Source: an uncultured Holophagales bacterium (GTDB taxonomy: Bacteria; Acidobacteriota; Thermoanaerobaculia; Multivoradales; UBA5704). From it: a stretch of 64,000 nt of DNA. The stretch's first letter is position 1. The number at the start of each line of letters is the position of its first letter. The stretch covers positions 768,001-832,000 of the forward strand of contig CAWJGT010000009.1 in assembly GCA_963842525.1 (NCBI GenBank), given 5' to 3'. Shown here in pieces: positions 3,505 to 58,188 of this stretch. A model generated the notes under the pieces. The model searched no databases. It worked only from the letters and a program-made list of their open reading frames with translations, and was not told where the DNA came from. The position numbers and the translations under genes are program-made.

Positions 3505-4674
<1,170 letters not shown>

Positions 4675-4867
4675 GACGATCTCCTCCGAGACGTGTCCAA
4701 GAGACGGATTCGGAACGGAATCCCCCCGGCAGGGGGTTTCAGGTGCCCCCGGGACGGCAGGGCCGGGTTGGGAGCATATCAGAGGGGCGGGATCGCGCCA
4801 TCCGGCCCTCAGGAATCCAGCCTTCATGGGGGCAGAATGATCACCTCTCGGTGAATCAGCGCTGGCT

Positions 4868-6045
4868 CTACGGACGGAGGGTGAGCGTCCTACGACGCCC
4901 GTTCGCGGCGATCAGTTCCTCCATCAACCCGGCGAGTCCCCGGAAGCCAACCTCGAGCTCGCCGAAGGTCTTTTCGAAGGGCCGCTCGACATCGATCGCC
5001 AACACCCGGAGGGCGCTGTCCGGATAGAGCTGATGAAAGGCGCGCAGGTTCCGCGGGTCGAAGTCGTTCGCCGATGCCTTGCACTCGATGGCGAGCGGCG
5101 GCCGGCCGCGCCGGGGCACGACCAGATCGACTTCGTGGCCCCGCTTGTTGCGCCAGTAGTGGATACCGGTGCGCGGCAGATGGGTGTGGAGCTCGTTGAG
5201 CACGTAATGCTCCCAGAGCAGCCCGCGATCCTCCGGGCGCAGAGTCAACCAGCCTTTGTGATAGCACACGAACCCGCTGTCGAACCCGTAGACTTTGGGC
5301 GCGGCCACGATCTCGGAGGCGGCTCCGGACTCGCTGAACGGCCGTAAGATGTGGGCCACGTGAGTGGCCTCCAGAACCGCCAGGTAGTTCGTGATGGTGG
5401 TCCGGCTGACCTCGCAGGCGCGCGAAAAGCGGGTGGCTTCGAAGATCCCGCCGCTCTGGGCGAGCAGCAGCTCGAAAAAGCGCTGGAACGAGCTTCGCCG
5501 TTCGAGGCGGAAGAGCTCCAGCACGTCTTTAGCCCAGAAGGCGTCGAGCCACTCCTGGAAGTCGGCCTCCGGCAGCTCTTCGGCGAGGAAAAACGGCGGC
5601 AACCCGCCCCGGAGCAGCCGGTGATCGAGATCGGGACGCCCGAAATCGGCGAGGTCGGCGGCGCTCAGGGGGTGAGCCAGATCTCCTCCTTCCGCCCTGC
5701 CAGGGTGTCGCGAAAGCGGGCTGAGGCGCCGAGCGTCGAGGAGCCGGTCGCCAGAACCTGCGTGGAGGAGAAGTGGTCGGCCGCGATCTTGAGCAGCTCG
5801 GAAGGGTTGCTCAGACGATGGATCTCGTCGAGGACGACCCGCCTGCCTTCGAGACGCTGCAGGAAAGCTTCCGGATCCTCCATCTCTCTGCGGGTGCGCG
5901 GTAGCTCACAGTCGAAGTATTCGACGTCCGGGAGGCTCTGGCAGAGACTGGTCTTGCCCACCCGCCGGACGCCGGTCAACCAGACGACGCTCTTGCGCTC
6001 CCAGGCGCTGAGAAGGCGCTGCTGCCAGAAAGTGCGGGCGTACAT
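4868..6045 (-). CDS. AAA_14/DUF4143-type ATPase, frameshifted near 5668
   Basis: GVRRVGKT, LDEIH and ATGSS in one frame; GGLP, PKVYGFDSG, EVDLV and IECK in the next. One C missing in a C run restores LTPLSAADL. Confidence 0.85.
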
Positions 6046-8852: not shown

Positions 8853-8908
8853 CCTCTCGAGGTCCACTCGCTCTTGACGCGCACGCGCCGTTTGGTCACG
8901 ACGAGGCC

Positions 8909-10744
8909 TCAGCCGGCCGAAACGCGCGCCTGCGCGGCCGGTCTGCGGCGGTCCACGTGCTCGCGGCGCGCGGCGGCGGCTTCCCGGCAACGTCTCCAGC
9001 CATCGACCAGGTCGCGCACGCTCAGCGATTCGGCCATGATCGGGTGCGGCGTCTCCCACTCTTGCATGTTCACCGGTGTCAGGTTGAGGTGGGCGTTCAT
9101 CGCCTGCGGCGACCACAGGGCCCGCACGTTGGCGCCGCCGGTCGTCCACAAGCAGGGGTCGGCGACCGTATAGACGATCAGGGTCTGGCGGCCGAGAGCG
9201 GAGGAGAGGTGGGCCAGGCCGGTGTCGGTCGAGACGACGGTGGCGGCGGTGGAGAGGATGGCGACCATGCCGGGCAGGTCTTCGTGGATCGGCTCGATAC
9301 GCGCGCGTACGTCGTCCGGCAGCCGCGCGATCTCAGGGGCGAAGGAACCCTCCCGATTCGTGTCGCAACTGAAAACGATCCGTTGCGCTTGGCGGGATTC
9401 CCGCTCCGCCGCGGCGCACTCGCGGGCGATCTCGCAGAGGAAGCGCGAGAGCAGGTCCGGAGCGAAAGCCTTGCTGCTCTTCGAGGCCGACTCGATCACG
9501 CAGTGGTAGACCGTGCCGTCGAGCTTGTAGCGGTGGAGCAGCAGCTCGCGGCGGCGCTCGACCGCTGTGCCCAGGGGAAGGCTCATGCAGACCTCGGCGG
9601 GGCGGTCGGTGAGCTTGCAGCCGAGGAGGATCTCGATCAAGCGGTGCAGCTTGGCGGGATAGGAGGTGATATGGCGGCGCGGCGGAACGACCGACTGCCA
9701 GGGCACGATGTCGCGCGAATAGCGGTCGATCAGGAGGTCGACGACCGCGAGCGCCCGTCCGCGGTCTTGCGCCGCTGCCAGAAGCTCCGTCGACACCGCC
9801 GGTGCGGAGCTGACGAGGACGACCGTCCGTTCGTTGTGCCGGCGCAGGTCCTCCGCATAGACCGCGGCCTCCGCCGGGTCCCGCGGCCCGCAGAGGCTGC
9901 GCACGGTGGCGAACGGGTGGCGTTCGGCGATCCCCGCCAGGACCGCCGCGTAAGGGCTGATGATGGTCACCGGACGACGCAGGTGCGGGTGCAGGTCGAA
10001 AAGCTTGCCAAGAGCATCGATGGCGCTCATGCCGAGCAGCGCGTCGCCGAGGGCGTGCGAGGTATAGAACAGGATGCGCTCCGCCTCCACGAACGCCGGC
10101 CGCAGCGAGGCCGCCGCGTCCACGTCGTCGCCGACGCCGGCACAGTCCATCATCAGATTGGCACGGTCGAGGAAGGCCTGGGTGAGCTCGCCGTGCGCCA
10201 GCGCAGGCCGGCGGCCACGGCGGACATCGAGGGCGGCGCACACGGCGCCGAGCTCGATCCGGCCGCGCGGCGAAAGCGTGCCGTGGGTCAGCATGCGGCG
10301 CGCGCGCAAGGCGTCTCCCAGGTCGTCGCCGCCGAGGAAAAGGCGAGCCTCGTGGTTCGACCCGTCGAGCGACAGCGCCTCCTCGAAGAGGGAGCGCGCC
10401 TTCTCGTAGTCGCCGAAGCGCGCCGTCACCTGGCCCAGGAACGACAAGGTCCAGGTGTCGCCGGGGCGTTCCTCGTGCAGGCGCTCGAGCAGGTCCCGGG
10501 ACTCATCCGGCCGGCCGCGCCAGAAGAGGATGCGGGCCAATTCCAGACGGGCGACGTGGGCGTCGTCTTCCGCGAGCCCGGGGAGCCGGGCGGCGAGCAG
10601 GCGCTCGGCACCCGCCAGATCGCCGTTGTTGACCAGCTCGTCCTGCGCCCGGCTCAGCAGAATCGACCCTGCCCGTCCGCGTTGGCGGGCGAACGCTTCG
10701 GCACGCTGCCAGGCGTCGTCGCGCACCACGTTTCCCGCGCTCAC
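8909..10744 (-). CDS. TPR-containing glycosyltransferase family 9 (heptosyltransferase-like)
   Basis: N-terminal TPR-like helices; HALGDALL; VVSTDTGLAHLSSALG. Confidence 0.8.
   Translation of the reverse strand: MSAGNVVRDDAWQRAEAFARQRGRAGSILLSRAQDELVNNGDLAGAERLLAARLPGLAEDDAHVARLELARILFWRGRPDESRDLLERLHEERPGDTWTLSFLGQVTARFGDYEKARSLFEEALSLDGSNHEARLFLGGDDLGDALRARRMLTHGTLSPRGRIELGAVCAALDVRRGRRPALAHGELTQAFLDRANLMMDCAGVGDDVDAAASLRPAFVEAERILFYTSHALGDALLGMSAIDALGKLFDLHPHLRRPVTIISPYAAVLAGIAERHPFATVRSLCGPRDPAEAAVYAEDLRRHNERTVVLVSSAPAVSTELLAAAQDRGRALAVVDLLIDRYSRDIVPWQSVVPPRRHITSYPAKLHRLIEILLGCKLTDRPAEVCMSLPLGTAVERRRELLLHRYKLDGTVYHCVIESASKSSKAFAPDLLSRFLCEIARECAAAERESRQAQRIVFSCDTNREGSFAPEIARLPDDVRARIEPIHEDLPGMVAILSTAATVVSTDTGLAHLSSALGRQTLIVYTVADPCLWTTGGANVRALWSPQAMNAHLNLTPVNMQEWETPHPIMAESLSVRDLVDGWRRCREAAAARREHVDRRRPAAQARVSAG
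10697..10743 (+). repeat. 47-bp direct repeat, copy 1 (5' end of the GT9 gene)
   Basis: TTCGGCACGCTGCCAGGCGTCGTCGCGCACcaCGTTtCCCGCGCTCA; 44/47 identical to 12549-12595. Confidence 0.9.
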
Positions 10745-10751
10745 GTTGGTC

Positions 10752-12497
10752 TCATCGGCTGAGCCCTGATTCTGAGCTCTGGCAGTCCTGACGCCAGACG
10801 GCGGGCAGGCGCTGGAGGATCTCTTCCTTCGACAAGCGACGGGGCTTCACCGCCTGGAGCATCAGCTCGCGCTGCATCAACTGATCGCCGACCAGGATGC
10901 CGTTGGCGTAGAATGTCGCTTCCCCGGCGGCCGCCTCCTCCTCGGTTCCGACGCGCAGGTTGTGCACCGGCACCGCCTTCGGGCTCGGCTGGCGGCCGAC
11001 TTCGACGAGAGCCGCCTCTCCGCTCTCTGTGAGCACGACATCGCCCTGCTTGAGCTGGCTTGCCATGACCGGCCCCCGGGAGGTGACCACCGGGTGCGCC
11101 TCGGTCAGCAGCAAGGTGTGCCCCCGGTCGTCACGGATGCGCACCAGGGGGTGTTCCTCGGAGCCCCAGGTCTTCCCTGTGACCGCGCGCACGTCCGCCT
11201 TGCCCTGTGACCGCACTTTCTCGTCGCCGTAGGCCTGGAACGTCTCGATGGCCCTCTCCGAGCCATCTGCCATGCGGACTTTCACGCCCGCGGGCAGACA
11301 GCCCTGCAGAACGTCGATCTTCGGCACGATCACCGTGTTCGACGTCGCAACCTTCGGCTTCCTGCTGGTGAACGTCGCGCCGATATGGCCGCCCGCCGTC
11401 TGCAGGAACAGTTGGAAGGTGTAGTCGAACAACATGCCGTTCGGCCTCAGGCAGTCCTTGTTCGGAAAGCTGGCGGGATTGAGATTCCAAGTCACGATAC
11501 CCTTGTCCACCTTGATGGCCGAAAGGTCGGTCGTCGCAGTCAGCATGCATCCGCCGCCGGCTGCGTCGGTCAAGGTGATGTCCAGAGACCCCGTCAGAGG
11601 GCTCGTCGGAGCCTTGGCCGGGGTGAAGTTGCCGGCGATGGGAAAGATGATGTTTGGCGGATTGCCGCTGCCCGTGCACCCATAATCGCAGTCGCTGTTG
11701 ACGCGCGGCCCATAGCAGATCTTGATGTTCCCCCGTGTCGGATCGACGCAGGCCGTGGCGGCGTTGGTGTTGCACTGCTGGGTTCCGCCTCCACCGGCGG
11801 GCTTGTAGTTCGGCGAGAGCTGGCAGGCGGCCCTCACGGGCTTCAAATCTGTAAGCAGGATGACGTAGGGCTCTACAAGGTCGTGCTTCTTCTGTTTGAT
11901 CAGGAAGAGCGCGTTGGCTTCGATGTCGCTCTCCGAAACCGGTCTCCCCGCAACCGCGACCTCCAGGTTCGTTTGCGCGCACAAGCTGCCTTCCTTGGAG
12001 CCGATATTGGTGTTTTCCTCGAGGTCGATGAGGGTCAGGATGATCCTCGTGTAATCAGGGACCTGATCGCTCGGGTAGGTCGAGAAGGCGCTGGTGTAGA
12101 AGTCTCCGTCTTCCAGCTGGCCGAACTCGGTGATGTAGTTCACGCCTTCGAGCGTAAGTCCTGCCTTGACGAGGCGCGGCTTGCCCGTTTTGCCGGTTGT
12201 GCGTGCCTTCTCCAGGAGCTTGAATAGATGGGGAGACCTCTCGGCGGAGACGCCGGCCCGGCGGAGTGTGTCGATCACGAAAGCGTACTGCCGCGGGTCG
12301 GCCAGGTTCAGCTTGTAAGGCAGACCGATCGCAACGTTCTGGCGGAGATAGCGGAGATTGGTGACCTCTTTCGCGGAAAGCTTCGTTCCTGTCGGCGCCC
12401 CTCCAGAGCTTTCGGCGCCGAGCAGGGACGAGGCGAGGAATAGCCCGAGCAGAAACATCAAGACGAACGCCGAGTGAAGGGCTTGAGGTTTTCTCAT
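10752..12497 (-). CDS. Secreted Cys-rich protein with a C-terminal Hint autoprocessing domain and tail
   Basis: Signal peptide; G|CLPAGVKVRMADG (block A), LTEAHPV (TxxH), VHNL, TFYANGILVGD (no terminal Asn), then a ~40-aa tail. Confidence 0.85.
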   Translation of the reverse strand: MRKPQALHSAFVLMFLLGLFLASSLLGAESSGGAPTGTKLSAKEVTNLRYLRQNVAIGLPYKLNLADPRQYAFVIDTLRRAGVSAERSPHLFKLLEKARTTGKTGKPRLVKAGLTLEGVNYITEFGQLEDGDFYTSAFSTYPSDQVPDYTRIILTLIDLEENTNIGSKEGSLCAQTNLEVAVAGRPVSESDIEANALFLIKQKKHDLVEPYVILLTDLKPVRAACQLSPNYKPAGGGGTQQCNTNAATACVDPTRGNIKICYGPRVNSDCDYGCTGSGNPPNIIFPIAGNFTPAKAPTSPLTGSLDITLTDAAGGGCMLTATTDLSAIKVDKGIVTWNLNPASFPNKDCLRPNGMLFDYTFQLFLQTAGGHIGATFTSRKPKVATSNTVIVPKIDVLQGCLPAGVKVRMADGSERAIETFQAYGDEKVRSQGKADVRAVTGKTWGSEEHPLVRIRDDRGHTLLLTEAHPVVTSRGPVMASQLKQGDVVLTESGEAALVEVGRQPSPKAVPVHNLRVGTEEEAAAGEATFYANGILVGDQLMQRELMLQAVKPRRLSKEEILQRLPAVWRQDCQSSESGLSR

Positions 12498-12548
12498 GGC
12501 TCCTCTCCGTGAAATGAAAACCGCAGCTCATCAACCGAGCGGCGGAGG

Positions 12549-12595
12549 TTCGGCACGCTGCCAGGCGTCGTCGCGCACTGCGTTCCCCGCGCTCA
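12549..12595 (+). repeat. 47-bp direct repeat, copy 2 (orphan GT9 start overlapping the lectin stop)
   Basis: Minus strand reads TTG-SAGNAVRDDAWQRAE-PPPLG*, against GT9 GTG-SAGNVVRDDAWQRAE. Confidence 0.9.
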
Positions 12596-12982
12596 AGCCG
12601 CGACGGTGATCCTCACCGTGAGCGATCCCTCGTTATCGGTGAAGCCGGCGCCGTAGATGCCGTTCATGTCGTCGTTGATGCTGAGGTGGAGAGGTCCGAT
12701 CAGGCCGTCCGGCACGAAGCCGATGGGGCCGACGGGGAACACCACGGGCGAGCCTCCTGCGACGACGACCTGGCCCACGAGCAGCCCTTCGACCTGCCCC
12801 TCCAGGTTGTATCCCTCCTTGGCGATGAGCCCAGCGTGGCCGTCCGGACCGACCAGGCCGTTGGCCGGGTTGGCGCTCCACTCGCCGTTCGCTGCGATCC
12901 TCACCGTAGCGGTTCCGTCCAACGTCAGCCCGGTGTCCATCCAGAGAGTGGTGGCGTCGACTGTCACGTTGAAGTCTGGCAT
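12593..12982 (-). CDS. LecA/PA-IL-like lectin
   Basis: WMDTG, ANGEW, GPDG, LLVGQV, INDD...DNEGSL (resembles the LecA Ca/sugar loop); AGGAAGG RBS. Confidence 0.75.
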   Translation of the reverse strand: MPDFNVTVDATTLWMDTGLTLDGTATVRIAANGEWSANPANGLVGPDGHAGLIAKEGYNLEGQVEGLLVGQVVVAGGSPVVFPVGPIGFVPDGLIGPLHLSINDDMNGIYGAGFTDNEGSLTVRITVAA

Positions 12983-13015
12983 GGCTCGAACCTTCCTTTC
13001 TCGCGATGTGCCGCT

Positions 13016-15277
13016 CTATTGTCTTCGTCCCGGCGGCGGCGAGCGCCGGAGAGGATCCAGGCCGCTCTTGAGCTGCGTGCCGGTTAGAGCCCTCCGGGCG
13101 ACCGGCGCCTGCTGAGCGACTGACGACACGGCCAGCGCAAAAGGCTGCCTCGAGCCCGGCGCAAGCGTGGCCGCCGTGACGGTGATCGTACATGCGCCCG
13201 CGGGCGTCTGCGCCAGGATCAGCTTTTCGAACGAATTCGCCGTGTCGGCAGGCCCATTGGCGGCCGTCTGGCCGTTCTGCATGCTGGGCACTCCTCCGTG
13301 GTAGACGGTGGTTCCGTCCGCCAGCGTCAGCGTGAGGTCGAGGTCGTTGACCAGCGCTCCCGCCAAACCGGCGTCCGGCGGGTCGTACCAGGTCAGTGTG
13401 ATTGCCAACTGCGTGGCGGCCGAGAACGTCAAGTTGGGGAAGACCACCGACTGTCCCTGTTGGGTGAACACGAAGGCTGCGCCGGGCTCGGTCAGAGAGT
13501 CGAAATACATGATCTGACCGGCGCCGAAACCATCGATCGACTGCCGCAGGTTGATTTCGCCCCAGCCCTGCATGTTGTCGGGCACGTAGTTGTAAAGCGG
13601 CGAAGTGCCGTTGACGAGCAGGGCCTTGACCAGCATCCCCGTCGCGTTGGGCAGGTTCGTCTGGGTGGCGAGGAACTCGCGGAGCAGCACCGCCGAGCCG
13701 GACACCAGCGGCGTCGAGAAGGACGTTCCGGAGGCATAGGCAAAGCCGGGCTGGTTCAGGTACGGCTGGTTGGACGGGCCCGCCCCGGTCGCCGGACAGG
13801 TCGCCGCCATGGACTGGGGACAGCGCATCGCGACCATGGCTCCGGGAGCGCAGACGTCCGGCTTGAGGCGGCCGCCCACCACCGGACCCTGCGAGCTGCT
13901 GTTGGCCATCGCGTTGATCGCCGTGGCCGTGGGATAGGTGAAGGGAGGCCCGGCCGCGCCCGTCGGAGGGGTGCCGTTGCCCGCATTGCCGACCACGAGC
14001 GAATCCTTGGAGCAGCTCAGGGTGCCGATCGAGCCGGCTCCCTGGGCGCCGTAGTTGCCGGCGGAGGTCACTACCAGCATGGTCGGGTTCGTCCCGACGA
14101 ACGTGTCGATGGCGGAGGACCCTTGCAGCGAGTACGTGTTGAGCACAGGAGCGAGAACGGGAAAGGTGCCGGTGGCGGGCACCCAACTGTTGTTGTGCAC
14201 CCGCGCATTCGCGGCGAAGGCGTTGGTCAGAGCGCGATCGATGTTCAGATAGCCTGGTTGCAGCCCGTTCGAATCGGCGTTGAAGGGCCGCATGATGGCG
14301 GTCGCCATAAAGGCTACACCGGTGAGGAGTCCGCCGGCAGAGGTCGCGCCGTTGCCCACGGCCACGTCGGTGACGAAGGTGCCGTGCGACGAGGGGTCGC
14401 CCTTATAGTTGAGGCCGGCCCAGCTTTGCGGGATGGTCGGGGCAGGATTGGTCCAGTTTGCGATGTCGCCGTTGACGCGCCCCTGGAAGTCCGCGAGAAG
14501 GGTTGCGGGATTCCCGGTGTCGAGCCCGGTGTCGTAAATGCCGAGCACCTGGCCGGTTCCGTCGAGGTTGTCGATGTTCGCCCAGGGCGGCGCGGCATTT
14601 GCGCGCACGCCGATCCTCACCGGCGCGATGTCGAGCTCTGGTTGCGGGGTCATGGCCGGCTCGACGTTCCATACGTCCGGCAGCGCCGCGAGCCCGGCCA
14701 GCGCCCTGGTTGGGACCGACACCACCAGCGCTTCCTTGCCGAGGGCGGTCGAGACGACGCGCGCGCTGCCGCCGAGCTTCACGATCTCCTCGGCGGTCGC
14801 CGCCGCTTTTTCAAACACGGTCACGACGACGTCCACCTTGCTCGTCGCGTCCGGGTTCTCGGCGCTCGCCCGCAGCGATGGATCGATCTTGTAGCCCGGA
14901 TGGAAGGCGTCGGCGAAGCGCACGCCCCGGAGCGCCCGGAGCTTCGCCAGGCTCAAATCGCCGACGAGAAGCCCGTGCCGGGCGATGGGGCCATGAATGC
15001 GTCCGCCGGCAGCCCGGATGGCGTCGTAGACCGCGCGTCCTTTCCCGGTCTCGTACTGGACGATCGCAACTCCCGGGTCGCCCTTGGCCAGCAGAGCCGG
15101 CGCCAGCTTCGGCGGCGCAGAGAGCGGATCGAAGGCGAAGTCACGCACGTAGAGCTTCGCGGCATTCGCGGCATCGGGTGAGGGCGGAGGCGGCGCGATC
15201 TGCGCGGCGAGAGCCCAGACCGGCAGGATCCATAGAGCGACGAGCGCGAAGAAGCGGCGTCGAGCGGACGATCTCAT
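13016..15277 (-). CDS. Secreted S8 subtilase, KP-43-like, with a C-terminal beta domain
   Basis: ARRRFF signal; triad DTG/HGT/GTS; SAGN oxyanion; KPDVCAPG; LVNDLDL. Confidence 0.9.
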   Translation of the reverse strand: MRSSARRRFFALVALWILPVWALAAQIAPPPPSPDAANAAKLYVRDFAFDPLSAPPKLAPALLAKGDPGVAIVQYETGKGRAVYDAIRAAGGRIHGPIARHGLLVGDLSLAKLRALRGVRFADAFHPGYKIDPSLRASAENPDATSKVDVVVTVFEKAAATAEEIVKLGGSARVVSTALGKEALVVSVPTRALAGLAALPDVWNVEPAMTPQPELDIAPVRIGVRANAAPPWANIDNLDGTGQVLGIYDTGLDTGNPATLLADFQGRVNGDIANWTNPAPTIPQSWAGLNYKGDPSSHGTFVTDVAVGNGATSAGGLLTGVAFMATAIMRPFNADSNGLQPGYLNIDRALTNAFAANARVHNNSWVPATGTFPVLAPVLNTYSLQGSSAIDTFVGTNPTMLVVTSAGNYGAQGAGSIGTLSCSKDSLVVGNAGNGTPPTGAAGPPFTYPTATAINAMANSSSQGPVVGGRLKPDVCAPGAMVAMRCPQSMAATCPATGAGPSNQPYLNQPGFAYASGTSFSTPLVSGSAVLLREFLATQTNLPNATGMLVKALLVNGTSPLYNYVPDNMQGWGEINLRQSIDGFGAGQIMYFDSLTEPGAAFVFTQQGQSVVFPNLTFSAATQLAITLTWYDPPDAGLAGALVNDLDLTLTLADGTTVYHGGVPSMQNGQTAANGPADTANSFEKLILAQTPAGACTITVTAATLAPGSRQPFALAVSSVAQQAPVARRALTGTQLKSGLDPLRRSPPPGRRQ

Positions 15278-15377
15278 CGGCTGAGCCCTCCAGCGAAGAA
15301 GAGGACATGATACTATCAGACTTGCACGAAGCCTGTCGAAGCTTAGATTCATTGCTCTGTAAGCATTGGAGATTCGG

Positions 15378-16901
15378 GTGAACCCGGAGGAGATCGCACG
15401 CTACCAGGGCCTGGCGCGCGAGGTGATCGCGAATCCTCCGCCCTATCCGAAGGAGCGCTATACCGGACGCGGCGTGGTGGTCTGCGGCGGCGGCGCCAGG
15501 TACTTCACCTGTGCCTACGTCTGTCTCAGCATGCTGCGCCAGACCGGCTGCCGGCTACCGGTCGAGCTGTGGCATCTCGGCCCGCTGGAGATGAACGACG
15601 ACATGCGCGCGCTGGTCGCGCCGCTCGACGTCACCTGCGTGGACGCGAGCGAAATGCGCAAGGAGCAGCCGGTCCTGCGGCTCCATGGCTGGGAGCTCAA
15701 GCCGTACTCGATCCTCCATTCACGGTTCGAGGAGGTGCTGTTTCTCGACGCGGACAACGTGCCTCTGGTGAACCCGGAGGTCTTCTTCACGTGTGCGGAG
15801 TACGAGCGCACCGGGGCGCTCTTCTGGCCGGATTTCAGCCCGCTCGACAGGAAGAACCCGATCTGGGAGCTGGCGGAGGTGGAGTACCGCTATGAGCCGT
15901 CCTTCGAAAGCGGCCAGCTCGTCGTCGACAAGCGGCGCTGCTGGGCGGAGCTGCAGCTCACGATGCACTACAACGAGCACTCGGACTGCTATTACCGGCA
16001 CACGGGGGGAGACAAGGACACGTTCCACATCGCGTGGCGGCGGCTGGGCCGGCCCTATGCGATGATCCCGCATCACGTTCAGGCGCGCGGCGGCGTGGTG
16101 ATGTGCCAGCACGATTTCACCGGTGAGGTGGTCTTCCAGCACCGCAACAATGCGAAATGGACGCTCGATCTCGACGCCAATCCGCGGGTGGCAGGGTTCC
16201 GCCACGAAGGGCGCTGTCTCGAGATCCTGCGCGAGCTCGCCGCGCGCTGGAACGGCGATCCGGCCCGGCTGCGTCCGGATTCGCCACAAGCGCGCCGGCT
16301 GCACGACGAAATCGAAGCGACGGAGAAGTACGTCTATGACCGGGTCGGCCACGACCGCCGGGTGATCCGCCTGCACACCGACCAGAGCATCTCCGGTGCG
16401 GGCAGCCTGGAGACGTCCTGGTTCGTGATGACCCGCGAAGACGGCGAGCCCGTCCTGTGCATTGCCGGCTCGCAGGGGATCACCTGCCTCCTTGCGCCGC
16501 GCGGCGACGGGGCCCTGACCGGCCGCTGGGAGCTCTTCGAGCGCATGCCGATCGACCTCCTTCCTCTGTCTCTGGTCCCGGCGGAGGATCTGCTGCAGAT
16601 CGAGCGCGACGCCCGCCACACGGCCCTGTGCGGGCTGGCGGCCCTGGTGGTCCACGTGCGGCGCGAGCGGAGGCTGGTCCGCTTCGAGCCGGGCGGAGGC
16701 CTTTCGAGCCAGGACGGCTCCCCGGACGGCTGGCGCTGGGGCCTTCGCTGCCGAGCCGGCGAGCTGGCGCTCGAGCTCACCGAGGCGGACGGCAGCCGGC
16801 GCCTCCTGTTCGAGGAGCCCGACGGCGTCTTCCGCGGTGAGGCGTGCTCCGGGCGCGACCGGGTGGAAGTCATTCCGCTGCCGGGACTGAAGCTCCCTTG
16901 A
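15378..16901 (+). CDS. GT71 (Mnn2/Mnn5-like) alpha-mannosyltransferase with two C-terminal ~80-aa beta domains
   Basis: RGVVVCGGG, LPVELW, EEVLFLDADN, ALFWPD, ESGQLVVDK, GDKDTF. Confidence 0.85.
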   Translation: MNPEEIARYQGLAREVIANPPPYPKERYTGRGVVVCGGGARYFTCAYVCLSMLRQTGCRLPVELWHLGPLEMNDDMRALVAPLDVTCVDASEMRKEQPVLRLHGWELKPYSILHSRFEEVLFLDADNVPLVNPEVFFTCAEYERTGALFWPDFSPLDRKNPIWELAEVEYRYEPSFESGQLVVDKRRCWAELQLTMHYNEHSDCYYRHTGGDKDTFHIAWRRLGRPYAMIPHHVQARGGVVMCQHDFTGEVVFQHRNNAKWTLDLDANPRVAGFRHEGRCLEILRELAARWNGDPARLRPDSPQARRLHDEIEATEKYVYDRVGHDRRVIRLHTDQSISGAGSLETSWFVMTREDGEPVLCIAGSQGITCLLAPRGDGALTGRWELFERMPIDLLPLSLVPAEDLLQIERDARHTALCGLAALVVHVRRERRLVRFEPGGGLSSQDGSPDGWRWGLRCRAGELALELTEADGSRRLLFEEPDGVFRGEACSGRDRVEVIPLPGLKLP

Positions 16902-16947
16902 GCTCCTTCTCCAGTGCTTCGACCGCGAGATCGCGCCGCTTCTGGGG

Positions 16948-19455
16948 ATGCGCAGGCCGACATTCCGGCGGCTGTTCGAGCTTCTGGAGGGACGGCGACA
17001 GGACTCCTACACCATCGTCGAGACCGGCGTCGCCCACCTCGCCGCTGCCGACGGAAGGCCCGGCTTCCACGCGGTCCACGGCCAGAGCACGCTCCTGTTC
17101 GACCAGTTCGTCAACGCTCGGGGAGGTGCGGTCTACAGCGTCGACTGCTCGCCCGTGCACTGCCGGCGGGCGCGGAGCTGGGTGAGCGACAGAGTCCGTA
17201 TCTTCTGTCACGACAGCCACACGTTTCTGGCCGGCTTCAGCGCGCCGACGCCCATCGACTGCCTCTATCTCGATTCGCTGGCCGTCGATTGGAGCGATCC
17301 GCATCCGAGCGCGCTGCATCATCTTGAAGAGCTGTGCGCCATTCTGCCGCGCCTGCCGGAGGGTTGCATCGTCGTCGTCGACGACACGCTACGCGGCATC
17401 GGAAAGGGCGGCTACATCGTCGAGGTGATGGAGCGCATCGGCGCCCGGCTCCTCTTCGAGGGCTATCAGGTGGCATGGCAGCTCACGGGTCCTCCGCCGG
17501 CGATCCGGCCCTGGGGGTGCTACGCGCCCGACGAGCTGGCGTTCGTGCTGGCTCGCCCGGCCGCCCTCTCGTACCGCTACGTGCGCGTGGGCTCCGACGA
17601 GCGCATCCTGGAGCTTCTGCCCGACGGCACGATCGGCCATGGGAAGGGGGAGCTGGAAGAGCGGTGGTTCGCCGAGCGCGCTGCCGGCGGAGGCGTCGGG
17701 CTGGTTCTCGCGGGCAGCGGGCGGATCACGGCGCGCCTCTCCCCCGTGCCACCGGAGGACCGTTGGCGCGGGCACTGGCTGGTCCACGATCGCGAGGCGG
17801 TCGAGCTGTGGCCGCTGCCGCCGGACGACGGAGTCATGCCGTCCGGCCGTTACTGGCTGCGCGCGGCCGAGGGCGGGGCACGCCCGCTCGGGTTGCTCGC
17901 TTCGCACGACGTCTGGAACCGTGGCGCCGGAGCCGAGACGTGGCGCATCGAACGCGGCGAGGACGGGCAACCGGTCCTCCTGCTTGCGGCGGCGGGCCGC
18001 GACCGATGGCGTTTCCATCCGGACCGCGAAGGGTGCTGGCAGGGGAGCTCGACCGCCGATCCGCCTGTCGCGGCATCGCTCGAGCTCCTCGGCCAGACCA
18101 GCGACAGCGAGGCCTCCGCGCGCACCGCTCTCGCCGCGCGCCGCCTGTTCCGATATCGCCGGGAAGGCGATGGCGAGTGGCCGATCGAGCTGGTGCCGGA
18201 CGGGACGATCGGCCGGGGCGCCACGCCGACCGAGGCCGCCTGGGACGTCGAGGACACCGGAGACGGCGAGCTCGCGCTCCTCCTCTACGGGCGCGACTCG
18301 ATGGCCGTGCGGCTGGCACAGCAGCCGGACGGCTCGTTCCTGGGCAAGTGGCCGCTGCACGACCGGCGGACGGTAAGGGTCGAGCCGCTCGACCGCGGCT
18401 CGGGCGCCTATCTCCTGCCGATCTTCACCGCGTGCCTGCCGCGCCGGCAGATCCGCCGCATCGTCGAGGTGGGAGGCGGCGACGGAGTCGACGCCGTCGC
18501 GCTGCAGCGCTATTTCGACGCCGACGTCATGGTCTTCGAGTGCAATCCCGACCTGCTCTCTGCCTGTGCCAAGCGTGCCGCTGCGTGTCCCCGCGTCACC
18601 CTGGTCGCCAAGGCCGCCGGCGAGGCCGAAGGGATGATCCCTTTCTATCGCGTGACCAACGGGAATCCGCACGCGTCCTCGTGCTTCGTCGCCAATCCCG
18701 CCTATCCCTACGAGGTCTACGTACAGGAACGCTGCGAGGTGGAGATGATCCGGCTCGACGGCTTCCTGGACGCGCAGGGGCCGGAGACGCCGGAGACCAT
18801 CGGCCTCCTGGCGATCGATGTCCAGGGAGGCTGCCTGGGCGTGCTCCGCGGCCTCGGAGCGCATCTCGACCGCGTGCGCTACGTCATCGCCGAGATCGGC
18901 ACCCGTCCCCTGTACGAAGGAGAGGCGCTGGCGCCCGAGGTCATCGCGTTCCTCGCCGGCCGCGGCTTCCATCTCCTGCGCTGGTTCGACCAGTGGGGAG
19001 TCCTGCCCGACGGAGATCTCGTCGACCCCACCGTCTTCCCGCGGCAGTACGCCGGGGCCGAAAGCTGGTTCGGCGACTACCTCTTCGTGCGCAACACACC
19101 GCGCGAAGCGGCGGCCGCGGCCGCCATCACCGCGCACCGGTTCTTCCGCTACGTGCGCCTGGGCCATGACGAACGGACGCTCGAGCTGCTGGCCGGCGGG
19201 CAGATCGGAGAGGGGCGCGGCGGGTGCGAGCGGAACTGGATCGTGGAGGAGCAGCCCGACGGCGCTGTCGAGCTGCTGCTGCTCGGTCTCGAGCAGGTGA
19301 CCTGCCGCCTCCTGCACGGCCCCGACGGCCGCTGGCGGGGGCGGTGGACGTCCCACGAACGGATGCCCGTCTTCCTGGAGCCGCTCCCGGCGGAGTCTCA
19401 GGCAGGATCCCAGGGAGCCTGCGAGGAGCCGAGCAGGGTTTCGCTGGAGGTGTAG
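16948..19455 (+). CDS. Double SAM methyltransferase (class I plus FkbM-like) with four ~80-aa repeat domains
   Basis: IVETG..LYLDS..VVDD; IVEVGGGDG..FECNP..IDVQG..YVIAE. The true start may be TTG 16898 if one C is missing near 16908. Confidence 0.8.
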   Translation: MRRPTFRRLFELLEGRRQDSYTIVETGVAHLAAADGRPGFHAVHGQSTLLFDQFVNARGGAVYSVDCSPVHCRRARSWVSDRVRIFCHDSHTFLAGFSAPTPIDCLYLDSLAVDWSDPHPSALHHLEELCAILPRLPEGCIVVVDDTLRGIGKGGYIVEVMERIGARLLFEGYQVAWQLTGPPPAIRPWGCYAPDELAFVLARPAALSYRYVRVGSDERILELLPDGTIGHGKGELEERWFAERAAGGGVGLVLAGSGRITARLSPVPPEDRWRGHWLVHDREAVELWPLPPDDGVMPSGRYWLRAAEGGARPLGLLASHDVWNRGAGAETWRIERGEDGQPVLLLAAAGRDRWRFHPDREGCWQGSSTADPPVAASLELLGQTSDSEASARTALAARRLFRYRREGDGEWPIELVPDGTIGRGATPTEAAWDVEDTGDGELALLLYGRDSMAVRLAQQPDGSFLGKWPLHDRRTVRVEPLDRGSGAYLLPIFTACLPRRQIRRIVEVGGGDGVDAVALQRYFDADVMVFECNPDLLSACAKRAAACPRVTLVAKAAGEAEGMIPFYRVTNGNPHASSCFVANPAYPYEVYVQERCEVEMIRLDGFLDAQGPETPETIGLLAIDVQGGCLGVLRGLGAHLDRVRYVIAEIGTRPLYEGEALAPEVIAFLAGRGFHLLRWFDQWGVLPDGDLVDPTVFPRQYAGAESWFGDYLFVRNTPREAAAAAAITAHRFFRYVRLGHDERTLELLAGGQIGEGRGGCERNWIVEEQPDGAVELLLLGLEQVTCRLLHGPDGRWRGRWTSHERMPVFLEPLPAESQAGSQGACEEPSRVSLEV

Positions 19456-20368
19456 CTCCGCTGGAGCGGATCGGGCGGATGTCCGCCGCAGCCATACAGG
19501 GCCGGCCGGTAGATCCGGGAAAGGTCGCCGGCCAGGGGCGCGAGGTCGCGCAGGCGCGCGACGTCCTCCTGGCGCACGAAGAAGGCGTTGACGCCGGCGT
19601 TCTCTGCATAGACCAGGACGTACCCCAGCCTCGCGCCGAGACGCTGGAGAGCGAGCTGGCTGGCGCCAAAGTAGCGCGTCCCGTCCCAGGATTTGTCCGG
19701 TCCCTCGTACGGGACCACGAGGTCCTCGCCGGGACCGTGTGCGCCGTTGTGCTCGACGATCACCACGCGGGGAGAGAGCAGCTCGCCGATCCGCCACCAG
19801 AATCGTAGTAGTCGACGTCGATGCTGAGCACGTCGAGCTGCCTGGGGACCTGGTAGCGCTCGACCAACGCGGGGATGTTGTCGAGCGTGACCAACTCGCG
19901 GTAGAGGCCGCGGGACGGATTGTGAAAGCCCAGGTCCCATTGCAGCACCGTGGCTCCCGCCTCGGCCAACACGCGGGTGTTGCACTCGCTGCCGTCTCCG
20001 ACGCCGAACTCCAGCGCGACCGGCCCGCGCACGCCGAGCTCCTGGAGCAGCGCCAGGAGAACGCCATCCTCGCCGTTCTGCGAACGCAGGCGAGCCTCGG
20101 CGCCGTACAGCGGGCTCTCCTTGTACCAGCTCAGACCGTTGTCCCAGTCGATGCGGTGCGTGCCCGCGAGCCGGGCCTCAGGATGGTCCGGACCGAAGAA
20201 GACGCGGAAGCGCACGGGCGCCTCGATCCATTCGAACCGCAGCCTCGGCAAGCGCAACCGCGGGTCTCCGTCACCGGCGATCCGGATGCGCCAGCCGGGG
20301 TAATACCATGTCCCCAGGAGGTCGGCGGGCGGATCAGATCCGGGAACGACGATCAGCTCCTCGATCAA
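19398..20368 (-). CDS. FkbM-like methyltransferase, frameshifted near 19800
   Basis: SQNGEDG, LEFGVGDGSECNT, LDVLSIDVD | PRVVIVEHN, YFGAS, GVNAFFVR; start uncertain. Confidence 0.75.
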
Positions 20369-20414
20369 GCTGAATCCCCAGTGCTGCGGCCGGAAGCAGA
20401 AGAACGGCGGCGGA

Positions 20415-22511
20415 TCAATCCTGGCCGGTGCGGAGCCACCAGTAAGAGCCCTGGCTCGGCTTGCGCCGGACGTTGGTGGCACAATGGATTTCGCCGTGAT
20501 CCATGTGGTATGCCCAAGTGTCGACGCTGGTCCCTGTAAAGCCGTAGCGCCCCAACACGCTGAGAGTGTAGGCTTCAAAGACGTCCGCATTCGCCTCGAC
20601 CGTGAAAGGTTCCGTGATGGGTATCTGAATCGGGCCCGGCGTGACGGGCCCGTAGGGTTTGGGGAAAAGACAGCGATTGGAAAGCACGAGCATGTTGACG
20701 ATATCGGCGGTCAAGGCTTCGAGCTTCATCATCGCTTGAAAGAACAGGACGGGGACCTCCTCGATCACGACTTGCGATTCCGGAAACTCGTCACGAATGC
20801 GCTGGATCACTCCCAAAAGCTTTGCCTGTGCAGATTTAGAGTCGAACTCTCCCTCTCCTTGCTGTGTGCTCGTGAGCACGGACTCATACCTCGCTCTGGG
20901 GTCCTCCGACTCCTCGAGCTCGAAATCCACTCCGAGGTTGATGAAATCCGCCCCGGGGGCTATCGGAGCCGCCAAGAAATCCACGAGCGACTGCCCGGCC
21001 TGGCGCGTTCCGTCGGCCAGTTTTATCTCCCGGTCAGTGAGAATCGTCGCGCCGGGGTGCTGGAGCAAAGTTTCGTAGATCAGGCGATAGGCGAGCCGCG
21101 GGCTCGGGACCAGCGCCAGGGCGCGGCGGTCGGGCAGCGGCAGGAAGCACACGACTTCGTCCGCGTGCCCGACTCGGAGCCAGGAGGCATCCAACGAAAA
21201 TGGCCGCTGAACCCTCTGCGCCCTGAGGAAATCTTTGAGATCCTCACGCGAGGGCTCGGAAAAATAGACTCTGCCGAGGATGTCGTCGCCGAGGGGCGGA
21301 GTAACCTCCAGATTCCCGAAGGCGAGGGTTGTGTTGGTGTTTGGCACTTGTTCGCCAACCTGGAACACGCTCATACCAAGCTTTTCTTCGGTCACGCGCC
21401 CCTGCCATCTTTCGACGGGCGAGCGGAGCGCGACCATCACTGCGCGTTCCGCGGTGGCGCGCGTATGGCCGATTTCGAAGCCGTCCTGCATGAATAGCCT
21501 TTCGGCCGCAGACTCGGTAGTGATCTGCTCACGCTGAAGCCCGCACTCTTGAAGGGCCTCCACGGTCGTTGTATACCGGTGCTGTTCATTAGGCGGAGAA
21601 GGCCCTCCTCCCGGGGAGAGCTTCAGCGCCACGTAACCGTGCTCCACCTCTTCTCCGTGATGCATCATGACCCAGGGCGCGATCCGCAAGCGGGCGTACT
21701 GCGGCTCGCCGGCGATCCCGTTGATGAGCGGTGTGAAGGTCACGACCACGCATGGGTCCGCCGCCAGGTCGCGCAGGTACTGGGTTGCTTCCGCGAAGAA
21801 CCGCACGACACCGTCGCCCTCGGCGGGGAATGCGAACTGGTGGACCCCTCGATCCAGAACGATGGCGCCGCCTTCGGCCGTAAAAAACCGAACTCTCTCG
21901 GGAGCGCTGACCGCGATGATGCCCTCTACCATGGGACGCGGTGATGCGCCGAGCACTGACTCCGTCAGTCGAAATTCGAAAGGCGCCCAAGCTTCGCGAT
22001 TCGGTTCAGGGTTCTCGTTCGCAATCAGGATCGCACCGCGCCCCTCGGGCCCGAAGGTCCACTGGTCGATCCCTTCGGAAACCAGCACGCCGTTGCGTGC
22101 GGCGTCCACGAACATGCGTGCGGCCGGCGCCGGCGGCGCCTTGAGTACAACGACGATCTCGACCTCCAGAGAGCCTTGGTTGTCCGCCAAGCCATCCCCG
22201 TGCTGCGCGTTGAGGTCGTCGTTGATTCCCAAAAACAACTGTCCGCGACCCATCGCGGAAACGTTCGCGCCCCGCCCCCCCACCCAGAAAACGGCTTCGC
22301 CGATCTTCCCCACCAAGCCGCCTTCCGGTTGGCCCGGAACCGCATAGCCGTCCGTGGCGGTGTGCTTGGAATCCCCTTCCGGGCCGTATCGGCCCGAGTC
22401 CGGATTGCACGTCCACTCTCCGCCCTTGCAGAGGACGTACACGTCGTGACCCTCGTCAACGACGACTCCCGTCGCCGTCCAACGAACGTTGGCAAGCACC
22501 TGGACTTTCAT
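20415..22511 (-). CDS. LecA-like lectin fused to a protein-arginine deiminase (PAD)
   Basis: N-terminus is paralogous to the free lectin; PAD motifs IAPW, FMQD, GNLEVTPP, WLRVGHADE, PKPYGP, GEIHCATN. Confidence 0.85.
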   Translation of the reverse strand: MKVQVLANVRWTATGVVVDEGHDVYVLCKGGEWTCNPDSGRYGPEGDSKHTATDGYAVPGQPEGGLVGKIGEAVFWVGGRGANVSAMGRGQLFLGINDDLNAQHGDGLADNQGSLEVEIVVVLKAPPAPAARMFVDAARNGVLVSEGIDQWTFGPEGRGAILIANENPEPNREAWAPFEFRLTESVLGASPRPMVEGIIAVSAPERVRFFTAEGGAIVLDRGVHQFAFPAEGDGVVRFFAEATQYLRDLAADPCVVVTFTPLINGIAGEPQYARLRIAPWVMMHHGEEVEHGYVALKLSPGGGPSPPNEQHRYTTTVEALQECGLQREQITTESAAERLFMQDGFEIGHTRATAERAVMVALRSPVERWQGRVTEEKLGMSVFQVGEQVPNTNTTLAFGNLEVTPPLGDDILGRVYFSEPSREDLKDFLRAQRVQRPFSLDASWLRVGHADEVVCFLPLPDRRALALVPSPRLAYRLIYETLLQHPGATILTDREIKLADGTRQAGQSLVDFLAAPIAPGADFINLGVDFELEESEDPRARYESVLTSTQQGEGEFDSKSAQAKLLGVIQRIRDEFPESQVVIEEVPVLFFQAMMKLEALTADIVNMLVLSNRCLFPKPYGPVTPGPIQIPITEPFTVEANADVFEAYTLSVLGRYGFTGTSVDTWAYHMDHGEIHCATNVRRKPSQGSYWWLRTGQD

Positions 22512-22663
22512 GGAAGCCCTCCCGCAGGAGCCCGGGTAACGCAGATCAGCAAGAGGCGGCGAGCGCACGGGCGAATCGGCGCCGACGCGCGCACGCGCCG
22601 CCAGCCCATCTCGGCTACATCTGGAATCTTCTAAAGATTACCGCAGAGCTGACTTCTTGTCCA

Positions 22664-23673: not shown

Positions 23674-23697
23674 GGACGATCGGCCGTCAGGAGCCGA

Positions 23698-24883
23698 TCA
23701 GGCGGCGGCCTTCTGGGTCTCCACGTCGTCGCCGAGGAGCCGGTGGACACCCCGCCGCAGGATCAGCTCGCCGAGGGGCACGTCCTTTTCGAGATAGGTG
23801 CGGGCGCGCTCGTCCACCAGCAGGTCGGGGCGCAACGCCTCGTTGATCGGCTTCTTGTCCGGGCCGGTGTAGAAGGCTTCGGTGAAGAGCAGCCGTCCGC
23901 CGGTGGACAGCTCGGCCATGCCCTGGCGGCCGGCGTAGCCGAAGGTCCGTTCGCCGACCAGCTCGGCCTTGACCTTCTGGCGCAGGACCGTGGCGAGGAC
24001 CTCGGCGGCGCCGAGCGTGCCGCGGTCGACGAGGACCACCATCCGGCCTTGCCAGGTGGGCTTGGTGTCGCCGCCGAAGGCCTGGACCTGCTCGGCGCGC
24101 CGCTGCAGCGCGCCGAGGTCGCCGGTGGCGAACAGGCGGGCGGTGGCATAGGCGGCCTCCGGATCGCCGGAGGAGACGCCGCGCAGGTCGATCGCGATGC
24201 CGCGGCGCGTCCGCTCGGTGCCGTTTTCGAGGAGCTTGCGGACCTGCTCGGCGGTCTGCGCGTCGAAGGTCGGGATGCGCAGCACCGCCACGCCCTCGAC
24301 CTCTTCCATCGACGAGGCCGGCGCCGCGAAGGGCGCCAGCGTGAACGAGACCTGGACGGGCTCGCCGAGGCGGATGCAGCTCCAGGCCCACCTTGGTGCC
24401 CGGCTTGGCGGCCAGGGTCTCCTGCATCTCCCAGAGCGGCATGGTGCGGGTAGTGCGGTCCTGGACCTCGGCCACGATGTCGCCGGGCTTGATCCCCGCC
24501 TCGCCGGCCGGGCTCCCTTTCTCCACCGCCACCACGTAGGCGAAGCCGTTCTCCTTGAGCAGGGTCAGGCCGCTCTGCCGCCAGCCGAGGTTGCGCACCG
24601 ACAGGTAGGTCTCCACCTGCGCGGCCGGGATGTAGAGCGAGAACGGATCGAGCGCGTCGGTCGTGCCGTCGAGGGCGCCGGCCATCAACGACTCCATGTC
24701 GGGCGCATCGACATAGCTCTGGCGGACCAGGCCCAGCACCTCGGTGAAGACGGAGAGGTACTTGTAGAGGGAATCCTCGTCCTGCGGCGCCTGCCGGTCC
24801 GCGGCGCGCAGCAGCGCGTCGGTCAGGAAGGGGAAGGTCAGGAGGAAGGAGACGAGAAAGAAAGCGGTGCGACTGCGGCTCAT
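23698..24883 (-). CDS. S41/CtpA-like PDZ protease homologue, frameshifted near 24376, active site degenerate
   Basis: LDPFSLY, GSPAGEAGIKPGD (PDZ), IDLRG, GTLGAAE, TFGYAGRQ. Confidence 0.82.
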
Positions 24884-51811: not shown

Positions 51812-52065
51812 GCCCTCCTATCCGCTGTTGCTGTAAGGGGATCCGCGTCGGCGCGAGCGGCGAAATCTACCTCAGCAGGCCTCAGCAGGCCCTGTCCAGT
51901 GAGACCAAACCTTTGCTATACGGGTCGATATGTGCATGTTGGCTTTGTGTTTTAGGCTATACAAATACTAGCAGGCCAGGAAAGAAGAGGTCAAGCTCTT
52001 GGGGACGCGACTGATACTGAAGCGCCCTGGCCCCTCTGGCTGTTGTTCGGAGGTATGATCGACGC

Positions 52066-56423: not shown

Positions 56424-56534
56424 CAGCCCCCCAATTCATGAGGGGCAAGAGCCTACGGGACAAGCGTTTACGAGGACTGGAACCCCGCAATTCTAATTGT
56501 CGTCACCCCGCAGTTCTAATTGTCGCCGAACAAC

Positions 56535-58097: not shown

Positions 58098-58188
58098 GTT
58101 GGTAACTACCCATCGCAGGGTTCTGCCACGAAGCTACTGGCGGGGGCTGTGGGATGGTCCCAGAGCCCGATTGCGGAGACTTCGTGCG

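Follow-up and report, generated by a model that had tools for sequence, protein, structure and literature searches.

Soluble enzymes that act on one methylated glycan are known from the mycobacterial methylmannose-polysaccharide (MMP) system, in which a soluble mannosyltransferase and several S-adenosylmethionine (SAM) methyltransferases produce a cytoplasmic polymethylated glycan, and in Pseudomonas the LecA lectin fold serves as a drug target. Here we describe a locus in which predicted soluble glycan enzymes are encoded together with proteins of the LecA fold. It lies in a stretch of 64,000 nucleotides from an uncultured Holophagales bacterium (assembly GCA_963842525.1, contig CAWJGT010000009.1, positions 768,001 to 832,000), hereafter the window, where eight genes spanning 8909-22568 form an island between housekeeping blocks. 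An earlier note, made from the letters alone, had proposed that the eight genes form one system that builds a methylated glycan, reads it by lectins and couples it to protein processing or modification. LecA-type lectins, bacterial peptidylarginine deiminases (PADs), GT71 glycosyltransferases, FkbM methyltransferases, S8 proteases and Hint domains are all of known kinds; literature searches gave no description of a soluble bacterial GT71 enzyme with the barrel repeat reported below, of the pairing of GT71 with a LecA-fold protein, or of a lectin-PAD fusion.

We read the region, with a probability of about 0.6, as a composite of a core glycan module and lineage-specific add-ons rather than as one eight-gene machine. 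The core contains the GT71-like transferase, a methyltransferase with Methyltransf_24 (MT24) and FkbM domains, a third methyltransferase, a GT9-like transferase with tetratricopeptide repeats (TPR-GT9) and a free lectin, with an S8 protease gene adjoining it. Its soluble enzymes would build and O-methylate a glycan, probably of mannose type, and its LecA-like protein would bind the product; to this part of the reading, too, we give about 0.6. The three most closely related loci found, from other soil bacteria of two phyla, carry the core as well, and it is best read as a horizontally shared, transferable module, beside which the PAD and the Hint protein are best read as lineage-specific additions.

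Recurrence of the core in related loci

A profile scan of genome contigs with an alignment of 29 GT71 sequences (A1) gave 239 confirmed loci, the best 80 of which were examined with flanks of up to 10 kb (the window's own genome is not among them). The three closest, whose GT71 proteins are 49-58% identical to that of the window, all carry a lectin and an MT24 domain. In a metagenome-assembled genome (MAG) of Deltaproteobacteria (L001), the GT71 gene (58%) is followed by an MT24 gene with one barrel repeat (58%), and a frame-broken TPR-GT9 gene (54-60%) is preceded by a free lectin (50%); the same locus encodes, at 4396-5904(-), a protein of 503 aa that ends in a second LecA-like domain (~125 residues, 55% to the free lectin of the window) and begins with ~370 residues without a Pfam match. 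In a Myxococcaceae MAG (L002), which like L001 belongs to Myxococcota, GT71 is followed by an MT24 gene with one repeat and then by an unbroken counterpart of the third methyltransferase gene; a separate gene encodes a protein of the form repeat-FkbM-repeat (35%), and there are two TPR-GT9 genes (60% and 44%) and two lectins (59% and 43%). The lectin gene stands directly upstream of TPR-GT9 in both loci, and in both the part corresponding to MT24 plus repeat is a separate gene after GT71. The third locus (L003), with 56% G+C and from a Pyrinomonadaceae MAG of another phylum, carries S8 (58%), lectin (59%), GT71 (49%) and MT24 (45%) consecutively. Two lectin-GT71 pairs, P0135/P0009 (longest contig 12053 nt) and P0131/P0026 (3079 nt), each with a common source, suggest two further co-locations.

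Across the 80 loci, the lectin occurs in 3, TPR-GT9 in 2, S8 in 1, MT24 in 5 and the barrel repeat in 56. Direct and iterated hidden Markov model (HMM) searches of the 80 loci for GT9, FkbM, MT24 and S8 detected these in the closest loci only, so that Pfam was used for the wider family, and the related MAG loci themselves contain frame breaks. The catalytic domain of the PAD and the Hint protein occur in none of the 80. On whether homologues are ever found together elsewhere, which the earlier note took as decisive for its single co-located system, the answer is divided: GT71, methyltransferases, GT9-like enzyme and free lectin recur together in L001 and L002, and S8, lectin, GT71 and methyltransferase in L003, while the PAD and the Hint protein, placed in the same system by that note, do not recur in any of the 80.

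For a wider view, 24 further loci were chosen for long flanks and taxonomic spread, and 184 of 188 heuristically picked open reading frames (ORFs) were scanned (the four longer than 1250 aa were dropped). In 12 of the 24 loci, GT71 has a further glycosyl- or methyltransferase at a distance of up to 5 kb or fused to it, with a methyltransferase in seven, GT9 in four and GT62/Anp1 in four; the association of GT71 with methyltransferases and GT9 is therefore general. None of the 24 has a PAD, S8, Hint or PA-IL domain, and the lectin association is confined to the GT71 subfamily with two repeats.

GT71-like genes stand beside GT62/Anp1-like genes in L034, L041, L046 and L079. The two families are partners in yeast mannan synthesis, and PF03452 is reported only in fungi among the eukaryote groups surveyed (PMC5225481); the four loci hint that the mannan machinery of fungi may have counterparts in bacteria. 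At another locus (L012, 6626-11748), the GT71-like gene stands between genes for an HldE-like kinase/cytidylyltransferase and a GmhB-like phosphatase, a hint of heptose supply there.

Gene content and composition of the island

With a G+C content of ~67% in the window, genes were called by third-position GC content (GC3) together with Pfam. The GC3-supported ORFs and their Pfam matches bear out the eight-gene inventory of the earlier note (Table 1), and its domain assignments hold, those of Hint and GT9 by weak or partial matches. The island is flanked by sucCD, ndk and a NagX-like acetyltransferase gene on one side and by yibQ-like, ctpA-like and M23 genes on the other. GC3 is 0.86-0.88 in the free lectin, GT71, methyltransferase and GT9 genes, 0.82 in the Hint gene and 0.75 in the lectin-PAD gene. 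Rfam, tRNA, promoter and terminator scans found nothing in the island except one promoter-like consensus match at 15339-15310. A reading as anti-phage defence was dropped, as NCBIfam and PADLOC gave nothing specific; the only PADLOC matches are weak ones of S8 to IetS (E 5e-7) and one of a methyltransferase (E 3e-4).

Table 1. Genes, domains and repeats of the island (positions in the window; AF2, AlphaFold2)
Feature	Position	Strand	Basis
TPR-GT9: TPR and C-terminal half of Glyco_transf_9, GT9-like GT-B	8909-10744	minus	Pfam
Hint protein: signal peptide, ~395-aa N-domain, Hint-like domain, short C-tail	10752-12497	minus	weak Hint-clan matches
Free LecA/PA-IL-fold lectin, 129 aa	12593-12982	minus	AF2 model and Foldseek; no Pfam match
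Peptidase_S8 subtilase	13016-15352	minus	Pfam, 101.5 bits over the full-length profile
Mannosyl_trans3/GT71-like transferase with two C-terminal repeats	15366-16901	plus	Pfam PF11051, 132 bits (cutoff 22)
GT71 repeats, aa 321-402 and 425-506	16326-16571, 16638-16883	plus	BLAST and HMM
Methyltransf_24 and FkbM methyltransferase, 835 aa, four repeats	16948-19455	plus	Pfam
Methyltransferase repeats 1-3, aa 208-291, 301-382 and 400-482	17569-17820, 17848-18093, 18145-18393	plus	BLAST and HMM
Methyltransferase repeat 4, aa 731-814, after FkbM	19138-19389	plus	BLAST and HMM
Third methyltransferase-like gene, two frames	19398-~20329	minus	L002 homologue
Lectin-PAD	20415-22568 (ORF), 20415-22511 (from likely Met20 start)	minus	Pfam PAD_C PF03068, 150.3 bits (cutoff 25)
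LecA-fold domain of lectin-PAD	22143-22511	minus	BLAST and six-frame scan
PAD_M of lectin-PAD, weak		minus	Pfam, below cutoff
PAD catalytic domain	~20436-21692	minus	Pfam and alignment to human PAD4

Core enzymes and the barrel repeat

In the GT71-like protein, D124 and D126 of the DxD motif are invariant in the 29 aligned sequences, and the sequence has no hydrophobic segment corresponding to an N-terminal membrane anchor. At least 1117 GT71-like relatives were found among 8000 scored candidates, and none in the plasmid collection. The proposal that the glycan enzymes are functionally linked gains from protein fusions: among the 120 listed relatives, GT71-like proteins are fused to FkbM (4), GT9 (3), class-I methyltransferases (2) and GT8 (2), and in single cases to Methyltransf_24, Stealth and other transferase domains.

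One GT71-like protein (P0032) has at its C-terminus an Acb2/Tad1 hairpin domain (66.8 bits), of the kind described in the anti-defence sponges of phages.

The second core enzyme combines Methyltransf_24 (34.9 bits) with Methyltransf_21 (PF05050, 44.1 bits, cutoff 22.7) and matches NCBIfam fkbM_fam (TIGR01444, 57.7 bits, cutoff 37.7). The third methyltransferase-like gene changes frame near 19800 (within 19760-19830), between '...DVDYYD' and 'FWWRIGE...', at a site outside any long homopolymer. Neither half has a Pfam or NCBIfam match, and its identity comes from the intact homologue that follows GT71-MT24 in L002 (tblastn E 1.7e-5); the L002 translation was used for this comparison, tblastx of 19300-20500 being swamped by high-GC noise. 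The gene could be a pseudogene or the product of an assembly error. We also noticed that the ctpA-like gene at 23690-24870(-) looks frame-broken, with CtpB_N-like and PDZ domains in one frame (to ~24380) and Peptidase_S41 in another (from ~24291); two frame breaks in 64 kb may be assembly indel errors. The TPR-GT9 protein matches TPR_14, TPR_19 and other TPR profiles of Pfam and has no signal peptide. Its Glyco_transf_9 match (PF01075, 37.5 bits, cutoff 22) is partial, covering profile positions 139-231 of 247, and its NCBIfam matches to RfaC (35 bits, cutoffs 185-437) and heptosyltransferase I are far below cutoff. Because they have no signal peptide, the core enzymes are presumably cytoplasmic.

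The domain of ~80 aa that had been noticed six times in the island is a genuine repeat, with pairwise BLAST E values of 4e-14 to 4e-5. An HMM recovers all six copies, having been built from those same six, and in a six-frame scan of the window they are confined to the island. The repeat (~83 aa) has no Pfam match, and its profile returned only weak WD40-like noise from PDB sequences. Its AF2 model, from an alignment of 77 copies, is a seven-strand barrel with a mean predicted local distance difference test score (pLDDT) of 94.1, and in the same 77 copies one Trp is invariant and a Tyr, two Arg, a Glu and two more Trp are nearly so. Residues of these kinds are common in sugar-binding modules and may point to sugar binding. 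The ESM Atlas gave leads below a score of 0.9 only; they are lipocalin-like domains, GH43_C and Atu4866 among them.

In the mechanism that we propose for the core, the GT71 enzyme would extend a mannose-type chain, the GT9-like enzyme would add another sugar, and the methyltransferases would O-methylate the chain. The six lipocalin-like barrels, found in the GT71 enzyme and the methyltransferase only, may hold the glycan or its acceptor and could thereby tether the two enzymes to one growing chain, and the LecA-like protein would bind the finished glycan via its conserved calcium site. The analysis shows the domains, folds, repeats, neighbourhoods, fusions and base composition, whereas the kind of sugar, its methylation, the parts played by barrel and lectin, and any tie to the PAD, Hint and S8 proteins are inferred.

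The same enzymes might instead glycosylate protein, in the manner of the TPR-containing flagellin or OGT-type protein glycosyltransferases: the TPR part of the GT9-like enzyme would recruit a protein acceptor, on which GT71 and the methyltransferases would elaborate a methylated O-glycan. The fusion of TPR to a GT-B domain in the window, L001 and L002, the position of the lectin gene directly upstream of it in the latter two, and an island of soluble enzymes that contains no lipid-carrier, flippase or export genes are all consistent with this. However, no acceptor was identified, GT71 relatives elsewhere have GT62, GT2 and GT4 neighbours of the sort usual in the synthesis of polymers, and a polymeric ligand would suit tandem barrel repeats better; protein glycosylation appears unlikely, and a free methylated glycan is the more probable product of the core.

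The LecA-fold lectins

The use of one lectin domain in two genes, as claimed earlier, is borne out: the 129-aa free lectin matches residues 22-140 of the lectin-PAD with 40% identity (E 2e-21), and the scan that located the repeats finds both copies in the island only. The AF2 model of the free lectin, built from an alignment of 23 relatives, has a pLDDT of 93.8. All 11 of its Foldseek matches with E <= 0.001 are LecA/PA-IL, EclA-N or PllA chains (TM 0.68-0.79), and the LecA chains among them reach a TMq of 0.77-0.79, an E value of 2.5e-6 and a probability of 1.00. At the level of sequence, the free lectin has no match in the PDB at E<=1, LecA ranks first when the family profile is compared with the PDB, with an E value of only 0.054, and neither window copy matches Pfam PA-IL (PF07828) at E<=10; PF07828 matches 10 of the 102 proteins found by the lectin profile. 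D104, D105, D116 and N117 are invariant in all 23 lectin sequences and align with the calcium loop of LecA, and by this alignment the free lectin carries the conserved calcium-site residues of the LecA type. For comparison, the calcium of EclA-N is held by Asp114, Asp121 and Asn122 according to the 2024 EclA paper (PMC11875179). The free lectin has no signal peptide, and a complex prediction with TPR-GT9 scored 0.00, which counts neither for nor against an interaction.

The LecA-like family is rare, with 3111 representative proteins found by the lectin profile among 1.84 billion. Its partners in the 102 scanned relatives (the fused proteins are numbered among P0140-P0287) include phosphatidylinositol-specific phospholipase C, phosphatidylserine decarboxylase, S10 peptidase, tyrosinase, TIR, cytidine and adenosine deaminases, GH64, GH72, LamG, PKD and PAD; the tyrosinase fusion (P0178) lies outside the window. 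The same 2024 paper presents EclA as the first fusion of a LecA domain with a second domain (PMC11875179). The LecA-like fold appears here as a widespread targeting module on many enzyme types, wider than that literature suggests.

When 211 lectin domains are placed in one tree, the lectin of the PAD clusters with those of other lectin-PADs and the free lectin with other free lectins, and the former is only the 49th of 210 by distance from the latter. It therefore is no local duplicate of the free lectin, against the idea of a copy of the neighbouring gene.

The lectin-PAD and its link to the module

An alignment of the lectin-PAD with human PAD4 shows that the motifs QDxxEIG, VGHxDE and HGEIHC, which hold the active-site Asp, His-x-Asp and Cys, are kept. 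PAD_M reaches 19.2-23.7 bits (cutoff 24.8) over only ~40 residues, and there is no match to PAD_N, the cupredoxin-like domain of animal PADIs, the N-terminus being occupied by the LecA-fold domain instead. No signal peptide or other recognisable secretion signal was found. Four relatives (P0228 and P0291-P0293), on contigs of 2.4-3.3 kb, have the complete lectin-PAD_M-PAD_C architecture in common with it (46-48% identity); the PADs that follow in similarity are 25-29% identical and have no lectin, and the plasmid collection gave five distant matches (27-28%) on Streptomyces, Embleya and Bacillus replicons. The lectin-PAD belongs to a rare arginine deiminase family with a LecA-fold domain in place of PAD_N, which probably guides citrullination towards a target that bears a glycan. 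Cummings et al. 2021 (PMC8826395) report PAD_C and a divergent PAD_M, with PAD_N absent, for bacterial PADs outside the cyanobacteria, and the word 'lectin' occurs 0 times in their main text; a search for papers on myxobacterial PADs found none. The family thus adds a new architecture to a small set of bacterial PADs.

Whether the PAD belongs with the glycan module is less clear, and we put the chance of such a coupling at about one in three. Several observations speak against treating it as a mere add-on: its gene adjoins the module, next to the third methyltransferase gene; two members of the rare LecA-like family lie 8 kb apart, so that chance is an unlikely explanation; and L001 also carries a lectin-fused protein. 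On the other side stand the absence of the PAD from the 80 related loci, its differing GC3 and the separate subclade of its lectin.

These observations also bear on the possibility that the lectin-PAD is a stand-alone effector, targeted by glycans to foreign cells such as prey or competitors and unrelated to the module, which merely shares a variable chromosomal spot with it. The many fusions of the LecA-like domain are those of a promiscuous targeting module, and the composition, lectin subclade and missing homologues of the PAD agree with an independent origin. The protein lacks a recognisable secretion signal, however, its gene is contiguous with that of the third methyltransferase, and the contigs of its four relatives are too short to show a neighbourhood, so that we hold this explanation as possible but tentative.

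For all eight genes to form one system, in which a methylated glycan is written, lectins read it, and PAD, S8 and Hint proteins modify or process a protein or surface that bears it, the tight packing between housekeeping blocks, the confinement of both lectins and all six repeats to the island, the improbability of two such rare lectins meeting by chance and the pairing of the module with a lectin-fused protein in L001 can be cited. We nevertheless consider it improbable: even the three loci that keep the core have neither the PAD catalytic domain nor the Hint protein, the composition and lectin of the PAD set it apart, the lectin-PAD architecture evolves independently, its members being 46-48% identical, and the Hint gene separates the lectin from GT9, two genes that are neighbours in L001 and L002. 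A link between the glycan and citrullination or Hint processing is conjecture. Its most explicit form, glycan-guided citrullination, in which the module, held on its substrate by the barrel domain, marks a protein or surface with a methylated mannose-type glycan, LecA-fold domains read the mark, one of them delivers the PAD to deiminate nearby arginines, and the secreted S8 and Hint proteins work on that coat, is as improbable as the eight-gene system; if true, it would be the first example in bacteria of a protein-modifying writer that is directed by a lectin and coupled to its own glycan mark. The PAD as a lineage-specific addition remains our preferred reading.

The S8 protease and the Hint protein

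The S8 protease has the DTG, HGT and GTSxxxP motifs and is of the secreted type, with a signal peptide and a likely true start Met at 15277, ahead of that peptide; its homologue in L003 lies directly upstream of the lectin.

The Hint protein matches several members of the Hint clan at residues 398-520 with E values of 6e-4 to 0.056, and none of the four models reaches its cutoff (PT-HINT 20.5 bits, cutoff 27.7; Vint 18, cutoff 27; Hint 14.6, cutoff 29.7; Hint_2 14.3, cutoff 28.4). NCBIfam adds an intein-containing RtcB match (E 1.6e-4), the ESM Atlas finds look-alikes among bacterial Hint-domain proteins of 500-660 aa (scores 0.91-0.92), and a PDB sequence search gave no match at E<=1. A closer inspection reveals a Gly399-Cys400 junction (GC|LPAG), TEAH (TxxH) at 465-468, and 'GD' where inteins have a terminal His-Asn; we take these to be the Cys nucleophile, the TxxH block and the absent terminal Asn of Hedgehog or B-type bacterial intein-like (BIL) domains. 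The protein is best read, from its predicted features, as a secreted, putatively self-cleaving protein and a lineage-specific add-on.

Weighing the composite reading

A number of observations weigh against the reading of the core as a transferable glycan module. The island contains no sugar-nucleotide, flippase, polymerase or export genes. With heuristic ORF picking, no glycan gene was found near GT71 in 12 of the 24 wider loci. Two loci with a two-repeat GT71 (L011 and L016, 42% identity) have no lectin in the DNA examined, and the only 3 of 80 loci that carry one are all among the closest relatives of the window, so that the synteny could stem from common ancestry or from one transfer event. 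The free lectin has no signal peptide and the S8 protease has one, which leaves their conserved pairing unexplained. Finally, the best structural neighbours of the repeat are the protease-inhibitor barrels Inh/LupI and Omp19, by matches that are themselves weak (E 0.025-0.06, TM 0.57-0.70, none with E <= 0.001).

A rival reading is pure accretion, with the GT71-methyltransferase operon as the sole functional pair and lectin, S8, GT9, Hint and PAD as passengers. The half of the wider GT71 loci without glycan neighbours, the uneven composition of the island and its one frameshifted gene agree with this view, yet lectin and MT24 recur with GT71 in all three closest loci (GT9 in L001 and L002), S8 and lectin keep their order in another phylum (L003), and fusions of GT71 to GT9 and to methyltransferases exist. 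We regard pure accretion as very unlikely and the composite of core and add-ons as the better account.

Other features of the window

A group II intron lies at 56830-62177(+), with D1-D4 at 56830-56970, a D5/D6 model match at 62025-62177 and a reverse-transcriptase/maturase ORF at 60507-62015. It appears to hold an inserted transposase (rve/Mu C-terminal, 58042-59514) and an AAA_22 ATPase (59346-60320), and a second rve/Mu-type transposase lies at 54951-56435. The segment 38000-44000, of lower G+C (0.59-0.60) and encoding proteins with leucine-rich/FNIP and pentapeptide repeats, is probably another acquired segment. At 50582-53394, a tyrosinase-domain gene adjoins a gene of the erythromycin-esterase family.

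Comparison with known systems

The lectin-PAD shares PAD_C and the catalytic residues with the bacterial and animal PADs and has a weak, below-cutoff match to PAD_M, and it differs from known PADs in its LecA-fold N-terminus and in its distance (25-29% identity) from the non-lectin PADs found. The Hint protein has the same order of N-domain, Gly-Cys junction and putative Hint fold as the Hedgehog-type and BIL Hint proteins, with TxxH and without the terminal His-Asn, whereas its matches are below the Pfam cutoffs and its N-domain falls outside known families.

With the fungal GT71 enzymes Mnn1, Mnn2, Mnn5 and Mnt2, the transferase shares the Mannosyl_trans3 match and the conserved DxD. Unlike these, it is bacterial, has no N-terminal anchor and bears barrel repeats at its C-terminus, and bacterial GT71-like proteins are fused or adjacent to methyltransferases and GT9. 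Literature searches on bacterial GT71 returned fungal and plant GT71 and unrelated items, with no paper on the bacterial enzymes, and none was found on FkbM-mannose systems of this kind; the bacterial GT71-like enzymes are nevertheless numerous and carry an undescribed barrel domain of ~83 aa.

The free lectin has the same jelly-roll beta-sandwich as LecA of Pseudomonas aeruginosa, PllA of Photorhabdus and EclA-N of Enterobacter, and resembles the LecA type in its size (~120-130 aa) and likewise in the lack of a signal peptide. It differs in its low identity (~22%), in a 4-residue insertion in the calcium loop and in that its gene lies within a proposed glycan-synthesis module; the description of EclA as the first LecA fusion contrasts with the many LecA-like fusions found here.

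As a whole, the core is best compared with the MMP cluster, a working analogy only, in which a soluble transferase and methyltransferases act on one glycan, as is proposed here. The island has no counterpart of the MMP hydrolase and adds a lectin, GT9, S8 and the barrel repeats; a lectin encoded inside a module that may make its ligand offers a direct route to finding that ligand.

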